This document shows, piece by piece, positions 1,091-49,143 of a stretch of 64,000 nt of DNA (its first letter is position 1; each line of letters begins with the position of its first letter). The notes beneath the pieces were generated by a model, which saw only the letters and a list, made by a program, of their open reading frames with translations, was not told the origin of the DNA and did no database searches. Origin of the DNA: Eledone cirrhosa (taxonomy: Eukaryota); the NCBI GenBank assembly GCA_964016885.1, contig OZ024742.1, positions 193,068,001-193,132,000 of the forward strand, in the 5' to 3' direction. A program made the position numbers and the translations under genes.

Positions 1091-1310
1091 GGCGGTGGAT
1101 GGACAGTATCAGTACTGTGTCTGACGCCATGCTTTGCAGCATAGAGTTACGGCCTTTTATTATCTGAGTTCAAATGCCACCGAGGTTAACTTTGCCTTTA
1201 ATCCTTACGGGGTCGATAAAATAAGTACCAGTCACGCTTTGGGGTCGATTTAATCGACTTTCCCTTCCCCAAAAACTGCTGACCGTGTGCTTATATAAGA
1301 AACTATTATT
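1091..1310 (+). mobile_element. tRNA-derived SINE with Nin/Deu-like core
   Basis: A-box-like ggcggtggatggacagtatc, B-box gagttcaaatgcc, core ctttgcctttaatccttacggggtcgataaaataagtaccag, (att) tail. tattattc(c/a)cttatataa occurs on both sides (TSD-like). Confidence 0.8.
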
Positions 1311-1417
1311 CACTTATATAAACCGATAGGGTGGGATTGCTGGGATATTTAGTAAAACTATTGTAAATGATTTAATATGGCACATTAATTTATTAGAACA
1401 TTATTAGATATATTTTG

Positions 1418-6524: not shown

Positions 6525-9130
6525 GGGGATTCCTTCTTTTGTTTCTGTGCCTCTCCTTTGTGCTGTCCTACGCCATTTTGTTTCTGTGTGTGTGTGTGTT
6601 GTGTGCTCAGTCTGCGCATGCGCCACATCCGGGTGTCTTTGTGTGTTTACGTTCATTTATTTATTTGTTTATTTACATGTTACTGGTTGGTTGTTTGTTC
6701 TATGTGTGTGTGTGTTTTCATTTTGTCCTTAATTGTAAGTTGTGATGTTGCTGTTCCACTCATATTTTTTATTTAATTTTGGTTGTAATTCTTTTATGTT
6801 TATTGCCTCTGTAATTTGTCTAAACATTGCGTCTTTTCTGTGTGTAGATTCTATTTTTATTTCTATGTTCTCTAATTTACCCTTGTGTTCTATTTTAGCA
6901 TGTTCGTAGAGTACATATGATTCTTTATTATCTTGAAGGTCTTGCCAGTGTTCATTTATCCGTTCCCCTACACTACGAGCTGTCTCACTTATGTACACTA
7001 TATTTTTGTCTCTACATTGTCCTTCAGTACATCTTATGCTATACACTACATTTCTACATTTACAGTTAATATGGGGGCTTATTTTACAGGTTATACATTT
7101 CTTATCTATACATGAGGGTCTTTGAAAAGGGTATGTCTTGCTAATAAGTGTTTTTATGGAGGTACCTGGTCTTTCTACTATCTTAATATTGAGTTTATGT
7201 TTATTTAGGGCCCTTCTAAATTTGTAAGCTAATTCACCTCTAGGGGTTGTATCGATGAACATTACACTCTGGTATTTATTGCTATCATACCATGAGTTTA
7301 TTCTATTAGCCTTCTTCCTAGTTCTTTCTATTCTATTCCAAAATTAGCTCCTATACAAGGGGCAGGTCCCATTTATGTCATTATTTACCATTTTTTCCCA
7401 TTTGGTTCTGGCTCCTCTATACACTCTGATTTTATCTCTCTGATTGTAGCCAGAGAACTGCATACGGTGGATGAAGTGTTGTATGTGTCTCTCTAGTTCT
7501 TCGGGGTTGCACATCGGGACACATTTCTCATCACCCGTACCAAATCCGCAATCAGTATGTTGATTTTGGTATGGTCCGAAACGGCCGAGTTTCGGTGGAT
7601 CAGATGTTTGGAAGTCATGGGTTTGGCATAATGGGAATGCAGGATTGTTTTTTGTTGTTAATGGTATCTAACCAGAGCTCTGTGTCTAGTACAGGTAATC
7701 GATGGTTGGGGTGTTTACTTGGGTAGTCTATAGTAACTCTAATGCTCTGGTGGATGGAGTTTGCTATTTGCTGGATGCTTTCCATTGTGTTTTTCTCTAC
7801 CTCCTGACTGTTCTCTAGTGGGGGTGTCTTAACTACGATGTTTATATCATCTACATAGCGGGAGTACATTATCAGGGTTAAGGGGTCTTCTAATTGTTCT
7901 TTAAATTTAAGTTTAAGTCTACTGTCCCACCATACCATGAATAAGTTAGCTATGTCGCCTGCAATTCTAACACAAATGGCTGCTCCTTCCTCTTGGGCAT
8001 ATGTTTTTACATTAAATTTGAACATATGTTCCTTAAGGGTTAGTTTTATGCTGGCCCCTACCGCATGTGCAATCATTTTCTTCAGTCCATCGTGGTTTTC
8101 GGGTGTCCGTATGGCTCTGGTCCACCCGTTCCATCTATCTGTGTGGGTTTTCTTGGCCATTGAGGTAATGGTAGGTGGTCTGCCTCTTGCTGGTCTTGTA
8201 GGGCACAGGTTGCTAAGGTCATATGTGTCTAGGTAATTATTACTATAGGTAAGCTTAAGTAGGAGTCCCAGCTCACTGGTATCAATCCCACGGAACTCAA
8301 CCTTGCTCTCACTGATCATTTCTACGCATTTCTCCACAGAGAAATCCACGTCAATAGATGGATACAGGGACACAACATCCATACTGCCTATTATGCAGTT
8401 TGTTAGGTCCCCAGATCGGTTACTCACGCCGATTCTGCTGAGGAGGTCCTCCGTGCTGTCACATACATCTGGGGACATTTCAATGATGGGGCGTATGATC
8501 AGGGAGAGGAAGTAGGACAGTCTGTAGTTACTAGCAATGTTAGCTCCACAGACTGGCCGTGTTGGTGGTCCCGCGACAGCGTCACAGCCCGTTTTATGGT
8601 ATTTTCGAAGCCCATACAACGCCAGCACGTCATTGTTCCAGGCCTGGAAGTTGTTGGCAGTCCTTTTGTTGGGCTGCATTATATTCGTCCACATCACCAT
8701 ATGGGCATTGCGGGCTTTTTCTCTATCCTCATGCTCTTGTGGTGTTGCCTCTCTTGTGTTAGTGATGTGGGGTTGCATTGCCTGGATGTAGTTTGGCAGG
8801 CTGTCAACCGACATTCTGCCAGACTTGTCTGTTGGAAAGCATGCTATCTCTCCATTACGTGAGCGCTGCATGAGCTTACGGAAAATAGAAAATATGAGTG
8901 GAACAGCAACATCAAAACTTACAATTAAGGACAAAATGAAAACACACACACACACATAGAACAAACAACCAACCAGTAACATGTAAATAAACAAATAAAT
9001 AAATGAACATAAACACACACAGACACCCGGATGTGGCGCATGCGCAGACTGAGCACACAACACACACAGAGAAACAAAATGGCGTAGGACAGAACAAAGG
9101 AGAGGCACAGAAACAAAGAAAGGAATCCCC

Positions 9131-9175
9131 AGTCACCGAAGAGGTCACAGAGTGTGTGACGAAAGAACTATGACT
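9131..9175 (+). ncRNA. Minimal type I hammerhead ribozyme motif in the inverted family A pLTR
   Basis: agtca-CCGAAGA-ggtcac...gtgac-GAAA-gaac-UA-tgact. Confidence 0.6.
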
Positions 9176-21059: not shown

Positions 21060-21379
21060 ATAAATGATTTAAACATAACTTTGTTTCATGTAATCTCTCT
21101 CTATATATATATATATATGGACGGCGTACTGGGTCTACAATTATGAGGTTGTAAGTTCAACATACAGAGCGGAGATAATTTTTAATGATGCTCCAGTTCA
21201 ATCAGCTGAAAAAATCTGTTGCGATGCGAGGCCACTATACCTTCAACAAAGACACCATAGGGCGAATCATTTTTAATTATATACCATCACTAAATATATA
21301 TACTTTATGTATTGCATTGAATTCTCTTTTGTCTTTTTTCGCAATGTAGCAATTATCAGTAATTGTATATATATATGTA

Positions 21380-21456
<77 letters not shown>

Positions 21457-21462
<6 letters not shown>

Positions 21463-22977
21463 ATAGATGAATACTATTCCTCTATTTCACCCGAAACCCT
21501 GCATAAGGCCCTCTCTTTCGCTAAGACTAACTCGGACCTCACAAACGAGGAAATTAATATTATACTTGAAGCTAGACGCACAGTAGTGCACTTTGAAAAT
21601 AGTTATTGGGTCCGCAGGGATAGACCCTCGGAATTCGACATTACGATGGGTTCTAATGATTCGGCGGAGGTCACGGATTTGGTTGGGATCTATATAGCCC
21701 ATAGACTCCAGAACGAATTTACGGACCTCCACGGCGGAATATACCGCGACGATACACTTCTATTAGTCAGGAATATGAACAAACAAAACCTAGAAAGGCG
21801 ACGTAAAAACATTAGGAAACTTTTCTTAGAACTAGGGCTTAATATTACCTTTGAACACAATCTTAAGGTGGTCAACTTCTTGGATGTCACCTTCAACCTT
21901 AATAACGGTAATATAGAGCCATTTCACAAACTTAATGAAAATCTTAAGTACGTTAATGTAAAATCGAACCATCCTCATTCCATTATTAAATCTATCCCTA
22001 AAAATATAGCCATAACGATCTCCCGACTGTCGTCTAATTTGCAGACCTTCAACGAGCATGCTGAATATTATAATGACGCACTTAGAAAAGCTGGTTACTG
22101 CGAGAAAATTGAATATCTAGAGGATAACCACATAAGTACTAGGAATAAAACACATCTAAGTCGAACTAGTATTGCACCACACACACACATCAATAGGCAT
22201 ACTAACAGGTGCAAACCAGCAAATAGAGTCAGACGTAGAGAGTACATATGGTATAACCCCGTGTACAATTCTTCTATTAGCACTAAGATTATCTCACAAT
22301 TCTATACACTAATCAATAAACACTTTACAACTTCACATAAATACTATAAAATCTTTAACTCGCGCACCATTAGACTCTCATACTCCACTGCACCTAACAT
22401 AGAACAACTAATTAGAAAACTCAACTCAGCAATACTGAATAAGTACATCCCTAATGACTCAGCGCACCAGCATAGCAACATACAACGCACTAACACGCAA
22501 CCACAACCCCACCAAACTATCCAGGATTCTACTGCAAAACATAAAAATAGTTGTAACTGCACCAAACCAGGTACGTGCCCACTGAATAACCAGTGCCTAG
22601 CACGCAATATTGTCTACCAGTGTACAATAAATTCCGGGACCAACAAATGGTATTACGTAGGATGTACCGCAACTTCTTTCAAGGCTCGCCTATACCAACA
22701 TCGATCTTCGATCAGGCACGAGAAAATGCGCTCCGTAACAACTCTCGCCGAGAAAGCCTGGCAGCTTCGGAGGAACAATCAAGCGTTCTCCCTTGATTGG
22801 CAAATTATTGCAGCTGCGCCTGCATATCAGCAAAATCATCGATTCTGCAAGTTATGCAATTTAGAGATATACTGCATTTTAACGTCGGTAAACAAACTTT
22901 TGAACAGCAAAATTGAACGTTCTCTATATTGTAACCATCGTTTGAAAACGACTTTTTCTTTTTTTAAATGCATATAA
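21457..22977 (+). CDS. Naiad-like PLE RT/GIY-YIG polyprotein, C-terminal ~506 aa
   Basis: Uninterrupted reading frame with RT and GIY-YIG motifs; the upstream part of the called ORF (21307-21456) is microsatellite. Confidence 0.8.
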
Positions 22978-23387
22978 TGTTACATTTTTACACCAACGTT
23001 TGCAAATTTCTGTCTTATATATTTATACACTAGATATGGCTTTCTATAATAATAGTACTAAACACTGTTTTTCTGGACCCCTTTAGAAATAACCTGCTAC
23101 TATAATAGCCCTAATAACTTGTCTGTGACACTGTACTACTTTGACCCCTCTAACTAAATGTTGTCCGAATAACACCACTAGAAGAATCTACTTCCTAGCC
23201 AACCTTTTCACGCCTCATTAAGCTAACTGCTGCCAAAACATTCTCTCTTCACATTCTCTACTAGTCTGACAGTCTTAAACCCTAAGACTCCCTCCACCTT
23301 ACTCACTTCCCTCTACCCCTTCTCTTCCTACCTCCTTCTTTATCTTTTATCTAGTGTATAAACTATTTTCATATCATTCTAATACAA

Positions 23388-23504
23388 AGGTCTGATGACA
23401 TGGTGTGTTGGCTTACAGTGTACTTTCGGTTTTTGATAATATTTGTGTATTATTCAAGTAGCGAAGTATAGGTAACTCATACACTATAGAAACAATTGTT
23501 ACCT
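23388..23504 (+). ncRNA. Type I hammerhead motif with long stem II (family C1 pLTR)
   Basis: aggt-CTGATGA-catggtgtg...tacactata-GAAA-caattg-UU-acct, followed directly by AATAAA. Confidence 0.75.
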
Positions 23505-23652
23505 AATAAATTCTATATACCCGCATTTCCATTTCGTAATTTTTTTCTCCATATATATATATATATATATATATACAAATATATATACATATATATATAT
23601 ATAAACCTTTGTTTGTACTGCCTGCCTCTCTGTTTTGTTGCCGTTCCATTTT

Positions 23653-28857: not shown

Positions 28858-29178
28858 ATAATATAAGATCAAAAGATGGTTAAAGGAGTTCCATATATTT
28901 TATTATGCGCATTTCAGAAACAAACATCATCAAACAATAATATTTGTGTTTTCATCAGATAAAACAGGAGAACATGATATGAAGGCTAAAAAACACTTGT
29001 TGATAGTGCAGTTATGATATGTTGATTTAAAACTGCACTATCAACAAGTGTTTTTTAGCCTTCATATCGTGTTCTCCTGTTTTATCTGATGAAAACACAA
29101 ATATTATTGTTTGATGATGTTTGTTTTTGAAATGCGCATAATAAAATATATGGAACTCCTTTAACCATCTTTTGATCT

Positions 29179-30118: not shown

Positions 30119-33413
<3,295 letters not shown>

Positions 33414-33419
<6 letters not shown>

Positions 33420-34137
33420 ATACATTAACGGAGAGCCATAGATCTCGCCGTTCCCTGTAAATAATGTGCTCAAAGGAGAGGAAATCCTGGGTACTTTAAA
33501 ATACAATATGTTGAACAGGTAACATACTAGTGAGAGATACAGTGCGCCATCAATAATACAGGGAAAAACCATCAGTGTATGGAATCTATAACCTATGAAA
33601 GGCAGAATATAGACACAATGATTAAAAATATAAATTAAAACGTAAATAAATACCTCTATAACTATATAACACACGTACAAATCCAAAGTGATCTGTTTCG
33701 CCAGTAAGTTTTTGACGAAAATGAAATATCCCAGGTTCATCAGCGTGTGTTAGACTATACATTTCAGACAACACTAAGATAAAGTTTGAAGCGGCCGTCC
33801 AACTACACATGGGAGAGAGAAGTCACAACGTGTTTAAGGAGAGTGAACCAGTGGCCTCTGAGGGACGAGCTGCTAGAAAGGGCAGCCCAAAACAACTCAG
33901 AGAAGTGTGCTTCAACAAAACAGAGAGAGAGAGGAGAAAGACTGTTATAAGGAGCGAAATATCACGTTACATTAACGGAGCCATAGAGTCTCGCCGTCCC
34001 CTGTAAATAATGTGCTCAAAGGAGAGGAAATCCTGGGCACTTTACAATATAATATGTTGAAAAGTTAACACACTAGGGAGAGATACAGTGCGCCATCAAT
34101 AAAACAGGGAAAAACCCACCAGTGTATGGAATCTATA
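33414..34137 (-). mobile_element. Retrozyme-like non-coding unit: 547-nt monomer with ~177-nt terminal direct repeat
   Basis: 33414-33590 is repeated at 33961-34137; one HHR inside; no credible ORF; (TA)n on both sides. Confidence 0.7.
33667..33752 (-). ncRNA. Full type I hammerhead ribozyme motif
   Basis: taacacacg-CTGATGA-acctggg...ttactggc-GAAA-cagatc actttg gatttg-UA-cgtgtgtta; 9-bp stem I, 6-bp stem III plus core pair, GUA site; stem II imperfect. Confidence 0.85.
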
Positions 34138-34202
34138 TATATATATATATATGAGAGTATTGAAGTTTGCTTGAAGCATTGTGGAATAATAAGGTAAATT
34201 TC

Positions 34203-34837
34203 TTTAAGTCGTTTGGAAGCTTCGACATTGCAAATGGGTAAATCTCCGGGTAACAAGATCTGGTGGTGGAGAGAGAGATGTAAGTGGGTGTACGTTTAGA
34301 TGCGTGGTGTGTATAAGACTGCAACGTGTAGAGGAATGAACGAAAGAGCGTAAAGGATGAAAATAAAAATAACAACACGAGAAAGTGTTACCTTGGGAGA
34401 GATTTAATTGTCTCTATATATTTCGGATTCACATACATCAACTGGGGGTTTTTTCTGGGGGGGGGGGGGTTGTCTGTAGGAAAGGTGCGAAACGTGTCCT
34501 CCGCTGTTCGTTGTTATGAATATTTGAAAACAAGATATTCAAAACAACGAACAGCGGAGGACACGTTTCGCACCTTTCCGACAGACAACACCCCCCCCCC
34601 CACCGGAAAAAATCCCAGTTGATGGATTGAATCCGAAATATATAGGGACAATTAAATCTCTCCGAAGGTAACTCTTTCTTGTGTTGTTATTTTTATTTTT
34701 ATCCTTTACGCTCTTTCCTTCATTCCTCTACACGTTACAGTCTTATACACGCCACGCATCTCAACGTACACCCACTTACATCTCTCTCTCCACCACCGGA
34801 GATTTACCCATCTGCATTGTCGAGGCTTCCAAACGAC

Positions 34838-41699: not shown

Positions 41700-44060
41700 G
41701 CAACTGGAGTCTTATTTTTTTTTTAAATATATATATTTATTTGGTCCCTTTACCGGTTTCGCAGTTGTTCTGCTTTTTAAAAGGTGAGTTGAGATGGAGG
41801 GTCTGTGGTTTTTCTTACATCTGGTTGGTCTCTGAATGTTACTTGTTTTATATGGGAAAAGTGGCTGGAAATGCCAGGTTTTTCGAGAAGTAATTTGATT
41901 GGTTTGTCAATAATTGTAATAAATTTCGCGCCAGTTCGCGTTACAATTGTTCTTCAAATAAGAGGGGGGGGGGGGGGTTGTCACGGGTTGTTTTTTCATA
42001 TATGAGTGTATGAATTTCTTTTTACTTGAAAAAAGGGGCCTACGAAGGCTTTTTTTTGGTTGGTTATAAATGAAATTATTGCTGTCACGTGAACAAGTTT
42101 TCATAAAATTTTCAAGGCCTTATTTGGAAATACATTCTGTAGCCTTTTTAAAGAATTTTATGATAAGTGAAAGATAATGGTCAAGAGAAAGGGATGGGAG
42201 AATTGTTCTGGTTCAGTGAATATGGTTAGTTCGCTGGGGTGTCAGAATTTATGTTTTCTATTGAATAAAGAAAGTAAAGATATGTATGTTTATTTGTGTG
42301 CTTGTGTTGTGTGTGTTTGAATTTCTTTACTTAAAAAAAGGGTGGCTCTCGAAGGCTTTTTTTAATAAACGTGATTTGATTGGTTATAAATGAAATTTGG
42401 CTGTCACGTGAACAAGTTTTCATTACATTTTGCGCCCTTATTTGGAAATCTATTCTGTAGCCTTTATAGAGAATGTTATGACAATGGAAAAATAGTGGTC
42501 AAGAGAAATAGGATTGGGAGAATTGTTCTGGTTCAGTGAATATGGTTAGTTCGCTGGGGTGTCAGAGTTCAGATTTTCTATTGAAGTGAAGATATGTATG
42601 TTTATTTGTGTGCTTGTGTGAATGTGTGTGTGTGTGTGCGTGTGTGTGTATGTGTGTATTGGAAGATGATTCTATTAGTAGAAATGGGGGAGGGAGTTGT
42701 GTGTGTGTGTATATGGGTGTTATGTGTGTGTGTGCGAGATGGAGAGAATACATATTTTGTGTGTGTGTAGATATGTGTGTAGGAAAGTGGTTCTATTGGT
42801 AGAAATGGGGGAGGGGAGTTGTGGGTGTGGGGGTTGTTATGTGTGTGTATGGGTGTTATGTGTGTGGGAGTATGGTTAGCATGTTCAGATGAAGAGAATA
42901 TATATATATATATATATATATGTTATGTGTGTGTGTGTGTGTGTGTGTGTAGGAAAATGATTCCTTTAGTAGGAATATTTTTGAGTGAAGATATTTTCCT
43001 TACTTATTCGTATTTGTTCTGTTGTATTGTCAGTGCAAACGTATGTTAAGGTTTATTTAGTTCGGGTTTTTATTTTCTAAAGTAGAAGGTGTTATGTGTG
43101 TGTGTGTATGTCATATTATGGTGTTGACATAATGTATATTAAACCATATTTAATGTTGGTCTATATCTTTGAATAAACATATTTTCCGTATTTATTCGTA
43201 TTTGTTCTGTTGTAATGTTAGCGCAAACGTAAAATGGGAAGACTTGGAATTTGGGTGTCTTATTACTTGCGCAACTGTCTAGATGTGCACTTAGTGGTAT
43301 CTGTCTCGTGGTTGGATCTCGTAATTGTTGGCGATGAACTGTCATTCTGTTTCTGAGTGTGAGTTTAGTTTGTCCTATATAATCTTCATTGCATCCTTTA
43401 CATTTAATGGCATAAAGTAGATTTTTTGATGAGCAAGTGAAGTGATTTTTTACAGTAAAATTTTGTCCTGATTTAAATAAATACGTGTTACCTTCAATAA
43501 GGTGAGTGCAGGTTCCACAATTAGAGCGACCACATTTTTTGATACTTGGTTGTGGGTTTGTGGTAGGTAATTTGGCATTGGTGAGTAATGTTTTCAGTGA
43601 TTTTGGTTGTCTTTTGCTTTTGATTATTTTGTGTGTTTCAAGGGCTTTTTTCATTCTTGGGTTTTGTTTTAGTAGTGGGATGTTCTTGTGAATAGTGATG
43701 TAAGCTTCCGCATTTCTTGGGTTGTGTGTTGAGATATATGATAGAATATTGGACGTACCTTGAATTTGTTTCTGTTTCCGTAATTCATCAATGCCTATTG
43801 CTTTAGCCCTTTCTATTCCATTATTTATTAGTAATAGTGGGTACTCTCTCTCGAGTAGAATTTCCTTTAATTCTTGAAGTCTTTTATTTCGCGTTTCATA
43901 ATTGGAGACAATTGTGCAAATTCTTCTTGCTAGGTTAAAAGGAATGTTCGTCTTCGTGTGCTTTGGATGGTTGGAGGTGAATAGCAGATATTGTTTGGAA
44001 TCTGTTGGTTTGTAGTGTATGTCAGTTTCGATATTTGTGTCTTTTTTTACGTCCGAAACT
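41700..44060 (-). mobile_element. PLE family B-related (Neptune-like) 3' fragment with long 3' region
   Basis: TDIHYKPTDSKQYL...SNHP...NIPFNLARRI, CGRSNCGTC, TCSSKNLLYAIKCKGC..YIGQT, stop at 43139. Internal ~320-bp tandem duplication near 42000-42620; degenerate HHR near 41746-41785. Confidence 0.88.
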
Positions 44061-45473
44061 TCTATACAAGACCACACAACAACAGGTGAAATACCATTAG
44101 ATATAATAATACCATTGAAAAAACATTCCAGAAAAATCATTTTTAGACCAAGGCTACAGGGCTCACGACACCCGGTGGCACAAACCGATTTTGAAAAACC
44201 GAAAATAATTAACCTTTCAAATACAAACCTCTCAGAAATAGAAAAATCATTTACAAAACTACGCTGGAGCCTCAAAAACAAAAACAAAAACAAAAGCAAC
44301 AATATACGCACACACATATACAACACACATCCCAACAACAACAGACACACAGACACAAACAACAATAACAACAACACACACACCAACAACAACAACAATA
44401 ACAACATACCCAGAAACAACAACAACAGACACGCAGACACAAACAACAATAACAACACACACAACAACAATAACACAGACAGAGACAACAGCAACACACA
44501 TCAACAACAGCACACATCAACAACAACAACACACACGCATTCAATGCCTCTCACCACCACCACAATCTTAACAAACACACAGACACAGAAAACAAGTAAT
44601 GACAGTAGCACAGAAATCACAGAAATAAGGGAAAGTAATAGGATTAAAAAGAGAAGGGAGACTAAGGACAAAGAGAATAACCAAGACGAACACACAGACA
44701 CACAAAATAGGGTAGATAACAACAATGAGCCAGCGGAAAGAGACAGGAGTAATTATGAGAGACATAGAAACAACCATGAGGCTGTTGGTGGAAATAGAAA
44801 TAGAAACAACACAACTAACAATAATAATAGCACTCGTACACATAAAGCAGCAGCCTGGAACTCTACGTTTTATAATCCCGCCGATAAATCATTCGACCTG
44901 CGACGAGTCCACGCCATGACTTTACCATTTAACAAACGCACGCAATTGCCGTCGCAGGTCGATGAACAAACAGAAGCACAATTTAGTATAGCTAGATCCG
45001 AACTTAGAAATATTATAGAACAGTATAGCAAGAAGCATGATAGAATGGAGGCCCAGCAACTGGGAGAAAAATCTGCAAATGGCTTGCGTAAGCTAATGCA
45101 GCGCTCACGTAATGGAGAGATAGCATGCTTTCCAACAGACAAGTCTGGCAGAATGTCGGTTGACAGCCTGCAAAACTACATCCAGGCAATGCAACCCCAC
45201 ATCACTAACACAAGAGAGGTAACACCACAGGAGCATGAGGATAGAGAAAAAAGCCCTCAATGCCCATATGGTGATGTGGACGAATATAATGCAGCCCAAC
45301 AAAAGGACTGCCAACTACTTCCAGGCCTGGAACAATGACGTGCCGGCGTTGTATGGGCTTCGAAAAAACCATAAAACGGGCTGGGACCAACACGGCCAGT
45401 CTGTGGAGCTAACATTGCTAGTAACAACAGACTGTCCTACTTCCTCTCCCTGATCATACGCCCCATCATTGAA

Positions 45474-47225
45474 ATGTCCCCAGATGTATGTGACAGCACG
45501 GAGAACCTCCTCAGCAGAATCGGCGTGAGTAACCGATCTGGGGACCTAACCAACTGCATAATAGGCAGTATGGATGTTGTGTCCCTGTATCCATCTATTG
45601 ACGTGGATTTTGCTGTGGAGAAGTGCGTAGAAATGATCAGTGAGAGCAAGGTTGAGTTCCGTGGGATTGATACCAGTGAGCTGGGACTCCTACTTAAGCT
45701 TACCTATAGTAATAATTACCTAGACACATATGACCTTAGCAACCTGTGCCCTAAAAGACCAGCAAGAGGCAGACCACCTACCATTACCTCAATGGCCAAG
45801 AAAACCCACGCAGATAGATGGAACGGGTGGACCAGAGCCATACGGACACCCGAAAACCACGATAAACTGAAGAAAATGATTGCACATGCGGTAGGGGCCA
45901 GCATAAAACTAACCCTTAAGGAACATATGTTCAAATTTAATGGAAAAACATATGCCCAAGAGGAAGGAGCAGCCATTGGTGTTAGCATTGCAGGCGACAT
46001 AGCTAACTTATTCATGGTATGGTGGGACAGTAGACTTAAACTTAAACTTAAAGAACAATTAGAAGACCCCTTAACCCTGATAATGTACTCCCACTACGTA
46101 GATGATATAAACATCGTAGTTAAGACATCCCCACTAGAGAACAGTCAGGAACAAGAGAAAAACACAATGGAAAGCATCCAGCAAATAGCAAACTCCATCC
46201 ACCAGAGCATTAGAGTTACTATAGACTACCCAAGTAAACACCCCAACCATCGATTACCTGTACTAGACACAGAGCTCTGGTTAGATACCATTAACAACAA
46301 AAAACAAATCCTCCATTCCCATTATGCCAAACCCATAACTTCCAAACATCTGATCCACCGAAACTCGGCAGTTTCGGACCATACCAAAATCAACATACTG
46401 ATTGCGGATTTGGTACGGGTGATGAGAAATGTGTCCCGCATGTGCAACCCCGAAGAACTAGAGAGACACATACAACACTTCATCCACCGTATGCAGTTCT
46501 CTGGCTACAATCAGAGAGATAAAATCAGAGTGTATAGAGGAGCCAGAACCAAATGGGAAAAAATGGTAAATAATGAGATAAATGGGACCTGCCCATTGTA
46601 TAGGAGCAAATTCTGGAATAGAATAGAAAGAACTAGGAACAAGGCTAATAGAATAAACTCATGGTATGATAGCAATAAATACCAGAGTGTAATGTTCATC
46701 GATACAACCCCTAGAGGTGATTTAGCTTATAAATGTAGAAGGGCCCTAAATAAACATAAACCCAATATTAAGATAGTAGAAAGACCAGGTACCTCCGTAA
46801 AAACACTTATTATCAAGACATACCCTTTTCAAAGACACTCATGTATAGATAAGAAATGTATAACCTGTAAAATAAGCCCCCATATTAACTGTAAAACTAG
46901 AAATGTAGTGTATAGCATAAGATGTACTGAAGGACAATGTAGAGACAAGAATATAGTGTACATAGGTGAGGCAGCTCGTAGTGTAGGGGAACGAATAAAT
47001 GAACACTGGCGAGACCTTCAAGATAATAAAGAATCATCTGTACTCTACCAACATGCTAAAATAGAACACAAGAGTAAATTAGAGAACATAGAAATAAAAA
47101 TAGAATCTACACACAGAAAAGACGCAATGTTTAGACAAATTACAGAGGCTATAAACATAAAAGAATTACAACCAAAATTAAATAGAAAATATGAGTGGAA
47201 CAGCAACATCACAACTTACAATTAA
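45474..47225 (+). CDS. PLE reverse transcriptase/GIY-YIG endonuclease (C-terminal 583 aa of a frameshifted ORF)
   Basis: GSMDVVSLYPSID, GAAIG, YVDDI, LPVLD, C....C..C, NVVYSIRC, YIGEAARS...R..EH, RQITEA..I...LN motifs. Confidence 0.85.
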   Translation: MSPDVCDSTENLLSRIGVSNRSGDLTNCIIGSMDVVSLYPSIDVDFAVEKCVEMISESKVEFRGIDTSELGLLLKLTYSNNYLDTYDLSNLCPKRPARGRPPTITSMAKKTHADRWNGWTRAIRTPENHDKLKKMIAHAVGASIKLTLKEHMFKFNGKTYAQEEGAAIGVSIAGDIANLFMVWWDSRLKLKLKEQLEDPLTLIMYSHYVDDINIVVKTSPLENSQEQEKNTMESIQQIANSIHQSIRVTIDYPSKHPNHRLPVLDTELWLDTINNKKQILHSHYAKPITSKHLIHRNSAVSDHTKINILIADLVRVMRNVSRMCNPEELERHIQHFIHRMQFSGYNQRDKIRVYRGARTKWEKMVNNEINGTCPLYRSKFWNRIERTRNKANRINSWYDSNKYQSVMFIDTTPRGDLAYKCRRALNKHKPNIKIVERPGTSVKTLIIKTYPFQRHSCIDKKCITCKISPHINCKTRNVVYSIRCTEGQCRDKNIVYIGEAARSVGERINEHWRDLQDNKESSVLYQHAKIEHKSKLENIEIKIESTHRKDAMFRQITEAINIKELQPKLNRKYEWNSNITTYN

Positions 47226-47425
47226 GGACAAAATGAAAACACACACACACATAGAACAAACAACCAACCAGTAACATGTAAATAAACAAATAAATAAATG
47301 AACATAAACACACACAAACACCCGGATGTGGCGCATGCGCAGACTGAGCACATAACACACACACAGAAACAAAATGGCGTAGGACAGAACAAAGGAGAGG
47401 CACAGAAACAAAGAAAGGAATCCCC

Positions 47426-47470
47426 AGTCACTGAAGATGTCACAGAGTGTGTGACGAAAGAACTATGACT
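47426..47470 (+). ncRNA. Minimal hammerhead motif, family A pLTR (second copy at 48130-48174)
   Basis: agtca-CTGAAGA-tgtcac agagtgt gtgac-GAAA-gaac-UA-tgact. Confidence 0.7.
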
Positions 47471-47678
47471 ATATATAAACAACTATCTGGTTGTGGACCC
47501 AACCAACTAACCAAACATTTTTAAATTTGTAAATTTATAAATATATAATAAATTGAAATGAAGTAACTGGTGCGTGTGTTTCTTATTGGCAACATGACCC
47601 TCCCAAAGTATAGCAATATCGGTTTCAACACACGATTTCAGATAAAGAAACTTGCTAAACAAATTCAGAAAGGAAATA

Positions 47679-47719
<41 letters not shown>

Positions 47720-48377
47720 AGATTTGAATGGATACAGTTTAGTTGAAAGGAATTTATTGACACGTGTTTCTATAACAGTTACATAACCTAAAACAGCTGC
47801 TATCTACAAACTTTTAGTTATGCAGACATAATGTTTAGACAAATTACAGAGGCTATAAACATAAAAGAATTACAACCAAAATTAAATAGAAAATATGAGT
47901 GGAACAGCAACATCACAACTTACAATTAAGGACAAAATGAAAACACACACACACATAGAACAAACAAACAACCAGTAACATGTAAATAAACAAATAAATA
48001 AATGAACATAAACACACACAAACACCCGGATGTTGCGCATGCGCAGACTGAGCACATAACACACACACAGAAACAAAATGGCGTAGGACAGAACAAAGGA
48101 GAGGCACAGAAACAAAGAAAGGAATCCCCAGTCACTGAAGATGTCACAGAGTGTGTGACGAAAGAACTATGACTATATATAAACAACTATCTGGTTGTGG
48201 ACCCGACCAACTAACCAAACATTTTTAAATTTGTAAATTTATAAATATATAATAAATTGAAATGAAGTAACTGGTGCGTGTGTTTCTTATTGGCAACATG
48301 ACCCTCCCAAAGTATAACAATATCGGTTTCAACACACGATTTCAGATAAAGAAACTTGCTAAACAAATTCAGAAAGG

Positions 48378-48427
<50 letters not shown>

Positions 48428-49143
48428 AGATTTGAATGGATACAGTTTAGTTGAAAGGAATTTATTGACACGTGTTTCTATAACAGTTACATAACCTAAA
48501 ACAGCTGCTATCTACAAACTTTTAGTTATGCAGACATAATGTTTAGACAAATTACAGAGGCTATAAACATAAAAGAATTACAACCAAAATTAAATAGAAA
48601 ATATGAGTGGAACAGCAACATCACAACTTACAATTAAGGACAAAATGAAAACACACACACACATAGAACAAACAACCAACCAGTAACATGTTACTGGTTG
48701 GTTGTTTATTCTATGTGTGTGTGTGTTTTCATTTTGTCCTTAATTGTAAGTTGTGATGTTGCTGTTCCACTCATATTTTCTATTTAATTTTGGTTGTAAT
48801 TCTTTTATGTTTATAGCCTCTGTAATTTGTCTAAACATTATGTCTGCATAACTAAAAGTTTGTAGATAGCAGCTGTTTTAGGTTATGTAACTGTTATAGA
48901 AACACGTGTCAATAAATTCCTTTCAACTAAACTGTATCCATTCAAATCTTTCTATATATATATATATATATATATACATATATATTTCCTTTCTGAATTT
49001 GTTTAGCAAGTTTCTTTATCTGAAATCGTGTGTTGAAACCGATATTGTTATACTTTGGGAGGGTCATGTTGCCAATAAGAAACACACGCACCAGTTACTT
49101 CATTTCAATTTATTATATATTTATAAATTTACAACGGAAAATA

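Follow-up and report, generated by a model that had tools for sequence, protein, structure and literature searches.

Metazoan non-LTR retrozymes were defined by Cervera and de la Pena (2020, PMC7229834), whose available sections also show their circles and propose that PLE reverse transcriptases (RTs) copy these circles into tandem cDNA. Li, Clavereau and Pollet (2026, 10.64898/2026.07.22.740005) link retrozymes to the pLTRs of PLEs, and the available text reports that one of nine retrozyme dimers cleaved in vitro and the other eight did not. In the available parts of both sources, the mobilisation of animal retrozymes by PLEs through circles has the status of a proposal.

According to the available portions of Craig et al. 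(10.1101/2021.04.23.441226), PLE insertions include partial tandems, an inverted truncated copy, and a tail of 30-40 bp on one end, and the PLEs of the Hydra clade target (TA)n and bear hammerheads. This was the only work that our literature search found on hammerhead ribozymes in cephalopod retrotransposons. Frangieh et al. (2024, PMC11167929), in the sections available, describe a purified PLE protein that cuts AT-rich DNA and extends both strands. In that system the RT has two internal start sites, which delimit the tail, and uncut RNA is the dominant substrate in vitro.

A dispersed non-coding repeat family

The window, i.e., the entire 64,000-nt stretch of the Eledone cirrhosa genome analysed here, carries at 33412-34137 (minus strand) a one-armed insertion of ~1.32 turns of a repeat unit. 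Units are numbered from the predicted cut of a hammerhead-like motif on a computed 545-nt majority unit, and the window copy runs from unit position 86 (5' end, 34137) through the hammerhead to position 263/264 (3' end). The initial annotation had described a 177-nt direct repeat spaced by 547 nt, (TA)n on both sides, and the lack of an ORF, all of which we can confirm. The repeat consists of 33414-33590, the first-copied turn of the overlap (unit 86-263), and 33961-34137, its second-turn copy (both minus strand), with ~92% identity (91.6-91.7% by blastn; 166 of 179 positions identical, with four gap positions). It is likely the overlap of a 1.32-turn copy that began at site B (unit 263; 33412-33416, minus strand), which forms the 3' end; a second start site, A (unit 175; 33500-33505, minus strand), is internal in this copy and lies 88 nt from site B. 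The 3' end lies in a (TA)n target tract at 33359-33415. At the truncated 5' end, a (TA)n tract at 34134-34152 overlaps the element through a TATA microhomology, and no target-site duplication could be read at this copy. The only stop-free frame of at least 120 aa over the copy (33285-33749) has no Pfam match, and the longest ATG ORF around the monomer has 63/65 aa.

The two turns of the window copy differ at 12 of 168 compared sites, which marks it as an old insertion. All 12 differences are unshared, and none of the five subfamily-diagnostic sites differs, a pattern that fits identical turns that later aged. The copy deviates by 4.3% from the majority of its own subfamily (medians, 2.7% and 2.2%). 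With its single hammerhead it allows no monomer excision and thus yields no circle itself; the locus is an inert old copy and a dead end. Directly beside it, nested long inverted repeats (93-98% complementary) occupy 31695-33178 and 34259-34800 and look like further two-armed insertions.

A search with a 724-nt query returned 3,057 first-look candidates, with the best copies being 87-93% identical (40 scored). The 21-nt hammerhead pattern of the window's subfamily gave 127 exact matches and a broader 19-nt pattern gave 1,295, against none for the reversed controls, so the motif is not due to chance and the duplication belongs to a family rather than to this locus alone. A junction pattern had 582 matches (reversed control, 0), mostly in a sister subfamily with ~541-nt units, a bias that stems from its chosen first letter. 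The repeat is a dispersed non-coding hammerhead family with units of ~545 nt and more than 1,000 copies in this genome. Four lineages are 67-95% alike; the two further lineages (~72% and ~67% alike) keep the unit layout, the latter with a period of 508-514 nt, and the sister subfamily includes copies that are 98-99% alike. The GC content of the unit is 0.40, against a criterion of under 45%. Two locus pairs were not counted as independent, namely, L245/L255, which resemble a segmental duplicate pair, and L206/L207, which share flanks. In one sequencing run of unstated kind, 2,520 short contigs match the family (share, 0.20) and give no indication of RNA form. A sister sub-branch (L112, L114, and others) has a 14-nt duplication that lengthens stem III and keeps the GUA site.

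The hammerhead-like motif

The window copy has one type I hammerhead-like motif at 33667-33752 (all parts on the minus strand, which the initial annotation leaves unstated). It is composed of a 9-bp stem I (33752-33744 with 33675-33667), the core CUGAUGA (33743-33737), a 37-nt domain II (33736-33700; A.C, CC/GG, and a variable loop) followed by GAAA, and a 7-bp non-palindromic stem III with a 6-nt loop (33696-33677). The predicted cleavage site (33675-33676) follows GUA, and unit position 1 is 33675; the cut position at 33676 is one that we take from the hammerhead consensus. The motif had been annotated as a full hammerhead, and the 9-bp stem I, the non-palindromic stem III, and the GUA site are as claimed, but stem II is not complete. 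Its first pair is an A.C mismatch, followed by CC/GG alone, and its pairing probability was 0.00-0.01 in all six folds computed. Our literature search found nothing matching this 10.1-11.1 mismatch in hammerheads. The initial annotation had argued from the stable stem III to monomeric cleavage; given the defective stem II, efficient monomeric cleavage is doubtful, and cleavage, hence circles, may be rare. The contrast that it drew with PLE hammerheads does stand, as stem III is long and non-palindromic in the family and short or palindromic in the hammerheads that follow PLE endonuclease fragments in the examined loci.

Among 23 aligned hammerheads from four lineages, the core is invariant in every row (the rows having been chosen by a core-matching pattern), as are CC/GG and the opening pairs of stem III, while loop II is variable; 20 of the 23 have a non-standard first pair in stem II. 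The majority sequences of the two main subfamilies differ at 40 sites, 14 of which fall within domains II-III, and the 28-nt segment with the 5' strand of stem I has no difference. The length of domain II is tightly held; relaxed patterns gave seven relatives with a shorter domain, all of them family copies, and none with a longer one. Selection on the hammerhead motif is likely. Covariation analysis found four pairs with two-sided change, a score equalled in 112 of 500 shuffles and due mainly to one inherited change; the replacement of C-G by U-A in stem I (5 of 23 rows) is a single inherited event. A lower core mismatch among the copies (1.3% versus 3.2%) was dropped as an ascertainment effect, because many loci had been picked by core patterns. 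The idea of a hammerhead blocked within the circle was also rejected, as the probability of stem I was 0.0 in one subfamily and 0.9 in the other.

A local tandem duplication or satellite in which a hammerhead-like motif arose by chance would agree with the modest local fold of the window motif (z only -1.9) and with the Rfam searches, which gave no match for the whole window at the gathering score or for 33400-34150 at E ≤ 10. This explanation is refuted by the core that is invariant across lineages and by the dispersal of the family, whose copies number more than 1,000, have fixed ends, and lie in (TA)n targets.

Other hammerheads are present in the window. A Hydra-type PLE ORF (21277-23560; CxCX5C linker, no Pfam match) is followed ~420 nt downstream by a hammerhead with a domain II of ~85 nt and a palindromic stem III. 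A Neptune/Nematis-like PLE ORF (44016-48640), to which a copy at 6729-9132 is related, has tandem 704-nt pLTR-like repeats with short-stem-III hammerheads at 47431 and 48135. Back-to-back hammerheads with palindromic stem III at 28900-29150 (28958, minus; 29086, plus) belong to a different repeat family, also found in L027, L104, L106, L107, and L122. Outside the window, L019 has an unrelated hammerhead (1280-1360, minus strand) with a 10-bp non-palindromic stem III and a GUC site. A loose scan, run with no control, of ~0.5 Mb of flank from 131 loci gave ~70 non-family hammerhead-like motifs of many types, which suggests that hammerhead repeats are dense in this genome.

Fixed 3' ends and the search for a PLE partner

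Measured from the predicted cleavage site, site A lies 175 nt and site B 263 nt further on. At 131 distinct places, 98 of the 207 outer 3' ends are at site B (unit 255-266), 82 are at site A (168-180), and 27 are elsewhere; 180 ends are thus at A or B. The varied start points that the initial annotation had proposed to look for genome-wide are absent, the 3' ends being at two fixed sites. TA adjoins 178 of the 207 outer 3' ends, compared with 20 of 55 5' ends. The 5' ends are scattered, with a 2-3-fold excess at unit 426-450 and no single pile-up. Both start sites recur in the ~72%-alike lineage, and site B recurs in the ~67%-alike lineage. Since TAT occurs at 22 places in the unit and ATAT at five, microhomology alone does not choose the start sites.

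Many insertions carry two opposed arms. The 103 places that did not come from the full-length query comprise 38 that are one-armed, 16 with a 3' end elsewhere, and 49 with both ends at A/B. Among these 49 two-armed places, 48 are A/B, one is B/B, and none is A/A, a departure from independent use of the sites with binomial p = 9e-14. Of the 60 places picked by pattern, ~20 owed their choice in part to several matches, which inflates the share of two-armed and multi-turn places; the A/B ratio was not selected. The insertions have the footprint of PLEs, namely, 5' truncation, a partial tandem, an inverted arm, a one-sided tail (88 nt), and a microsatellite target. The two fixed ends, one per arm, suggest that a Penelope-type enzyme likely wrote the repeat into (TA)n tracts. 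The one-site-per-arm rule and the repeat family were not found in the openly accessible papers searched.

For the search of a PLE partner, 12 window ORFs were used as tblastn queries against sets of 131, 49, 30, 7, and 20 loci (a few of them overlapping) with flanks of 1.5-4 kb. No PLE ORF attached to a family unit was found in these ~235 loci, a result that agrees with the initial annotation and applies to PLE clades resembling the 12 ORFs, as others could be missed. PLE and LINE fragments are present nearby in the searched loci, and none continues into the 5' end of the family. The RT and GIY-YIG ORF of an autonomous PLE is absent from the unit. No autonomous partner was found via the two diverged lineages, the shorter or longer domain II patterns, or PLE 3' regions, and no similarity of the unit to PLE 3' regions was seen in the examined loci, which sample few PLE families.

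With an end structure that is indistinguishable from that of PLEs and with ORF screens limited to the 12 window ORFs and these flanks, the copies might simply be pLTR remnants, truncated at the 5' end, that an autonomous PLE left behind, with its ORF-bearing copies lying outside the sample. We consider this improbable. The units join directly head to tail (545 to 1), up to 4.4 turns follow one another without an intervening ORF, and three close same-strand PLE fragments stop at their own TA runs. Furthermore, truncated copies have no 5' flank in common, apart from one pair by a LINE-like end. In this pair (L092:750-1526 and L114), the 3' end of an abundant element adjoins the 5' end of the family pieces, and we read it as a LINE-like 3' end.

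Template of the multi-turn copies and known systems

The predicted cleavage site is crossed by 176 of 185 evaluable pieces. Direct reading placed six stops at unit positions 1-3 and three at 4-7 nt beyond; three pieces that were not evaluable were dropped, and 32 apparent stops at unit positions 1-5 proved to be mostly alignment artefacts. Three of the six stops at positions 1-3 come from a stop-enriching search, so no stop enrichment is claimed. In a search without the hammerhead requirement, 3 of the 100 matches listed stop at the cleavage site. Because loci were picked by similarity or motif, the counts of read-through and of multi-turn copies are inflated.

Turns of the same insertion resemble each other. 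Diagnostic sites differ at 9.0% between direct turns and 5.9% between inverted ones, compared with 23.9% between places of one set (background, 4-6%). Rare variants are held in common in 124 of 777 cases (15 expected) and 100 of 649 cases (13 expected), and 21 strictly private variants are common to turns or arms at 14 places. These comparisons support the descent of the turns of one insertion from one template variant. In 14 of 20 cases the distance within an array is smaller than that to its nearest neighbour among the other arrays; the two are equal in one case, and the within-array distance is larger in five. An A-to-I editing scar was considered and rejected (A>G 14 versus T>C 12 among shared changes and 55 versus 91 among unshared ones; Fisher p = 0.13).

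The initial annotation had proposed copying more than once around a circular RNA. Multi-turn copies are indeed common and derive from one template variant, but two kinds of template are compatible with them, a circle being one. The explanation that we lean towards is that a PLE endonuclease and RT inserted the repeat by copying circular unit RNA, with the window copy being an old insertion that has one hammerhead. Loci with at least two same-strand hammerheads would be transcribed, cut, and ligated into circles, mostly monomers; given the weak stem II, the cutting may occur with protein help. A PLE protein would then cut (TA)n and prime cDNA internally, using site A (+175) for one of the DNA ends and site B (+263) for the other. 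Each cDNA would extend upstream past the ligated site, over as many as ~4.4 turns, and halt at scattered positions. The two cDNAs would meet as an inversion, or a single arm would be kept, as in the window copy.

Variant sharing and read-through fit a circle, and a homogeneous uncut multimer fits them equally well. The same two-site priming by a PLE may have acted on linear RNA, either an uncut multimer read from tandem loci that are young and homogeneous or monomers that were cut and then linked as the enzyme jumped precisely between templates; the hammerhead would then be weak or vestigial and no circle would be needed. We regard this as a serious possibility, albeit one that we rather doubt. 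Potential sources exist, as a same-strand hammerhead pair around a unit occurs at 10 of 131 places (the set being enriched for them) and many of the best matches are arrays of 3-4 units. At least two consecutive complete hammerheads, by which Li et al. call a retrozyme "active," are found in the family and not at the window locus. Stem II is defective across lineages, and uncut RNA is the main PLE substrate in vitro in the available sections of PMC11167929. Moreover, among long arrays with at least four pieces, 6 of 17 have structured split sites and 11 have none; such sites imply multimeric templates or later exchange between units and do not arise from a single monomer circle. Linear copying with 5' truncation can only shorten arrays, yet multi-turn copies are held by four lineages. 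The best 40 candidates of each of two long-array queries included uninterrupted arrays of at most ~4.4 turns and no satellite-length source array, and the 5' ends do not pile up at any one position that would mark where transcription starts. The constant length of domain II and the invariant core, maintained while loop II changes, also suggest that the ribozyme matters.

The young 4.4-turn arrays L238 and L239 have alternating or XYYX variants (XYYX at five sites in L239), possibly traces of dimer or trimer templates.

A more specific version of copying from a circle is speculative, and we hold it to be possible rather than probable. A PLE enzyme would load one small RNA circle and copy both ways from a dedicated start site for each (TA)n end, 88 nt apart. 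The hammerhead, whose unpaired first position in stem II would be retained from lineage to lineage, would cut only if helped by the borrowed protein, which would tie the formation of circles to the enzyme.

Plant LTR retrozymes have type III hammerheads in LTRs and a 4-bp TSD; in this family the hammerhead is type I, the repeat is a turn overlap, and the ends lie in (TA)n. The closest class is that of metazoan non-LTR retrozymes, of which the family is a variant by its sequence characteristics. The kind of element, which the initial annotation thought might be undescribed, has in fact been described, with a PLE derivation, in the available text of PMC7229834 and 10.64898/2026.07.22.740005. As far as these sections go, shared features are a non-coding tandem unit with 40% GC and a type I hammerhead, dispersal as anything from monomers to short multimers, and proposed PLE mobilisation, and the unit length is inside the 51-972 bp retrozyme range of Li et al. 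(10.64898/2026.07.22.740005). The family differs in having a unit above the typical ~300 bp, a stem II with an initial mismatch and a variable loop of ~30 nt, and mostly 1-4-turn, often two-armed (TA)n insertions with two fixed ends. The class is further characterised by a canonical stem II with contact between loops 1 and 2, and by self-cleavage and the accumulation of circular RNA.

The family supplies exact, countable rules for the substrate, namely, two start sites of which each arm uses one, conserved across lineages ~25-35% apart, and a TA target. These rules can be used directly in the in vitro PLE assay that already exists, comparing circular with linear templates. With EN+ PLEs, including the Hydra clade, it has in common partial tandems, 5' truncation, an inverted arm, a one-sided tail, (TA)n targets, and a hammerhead upstream of the 3' ends; unlike the EN+ PLEs in the available descriptions, it has no ORF, and its tail is 88 nt rather than 30-40. 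The likeness to the Anolis Poseidon element PAc, as presented in the available sections of PMC11167929, includes two internal RT start sites past the hammerhead, an AT-rich target, and the extension of both strands. However, PAc is autonomous and showed no strand difference in start site in vitro, whereas this family is non-coding and, in 48 of 49 insertions, the start site of one arm differs from that of the other.
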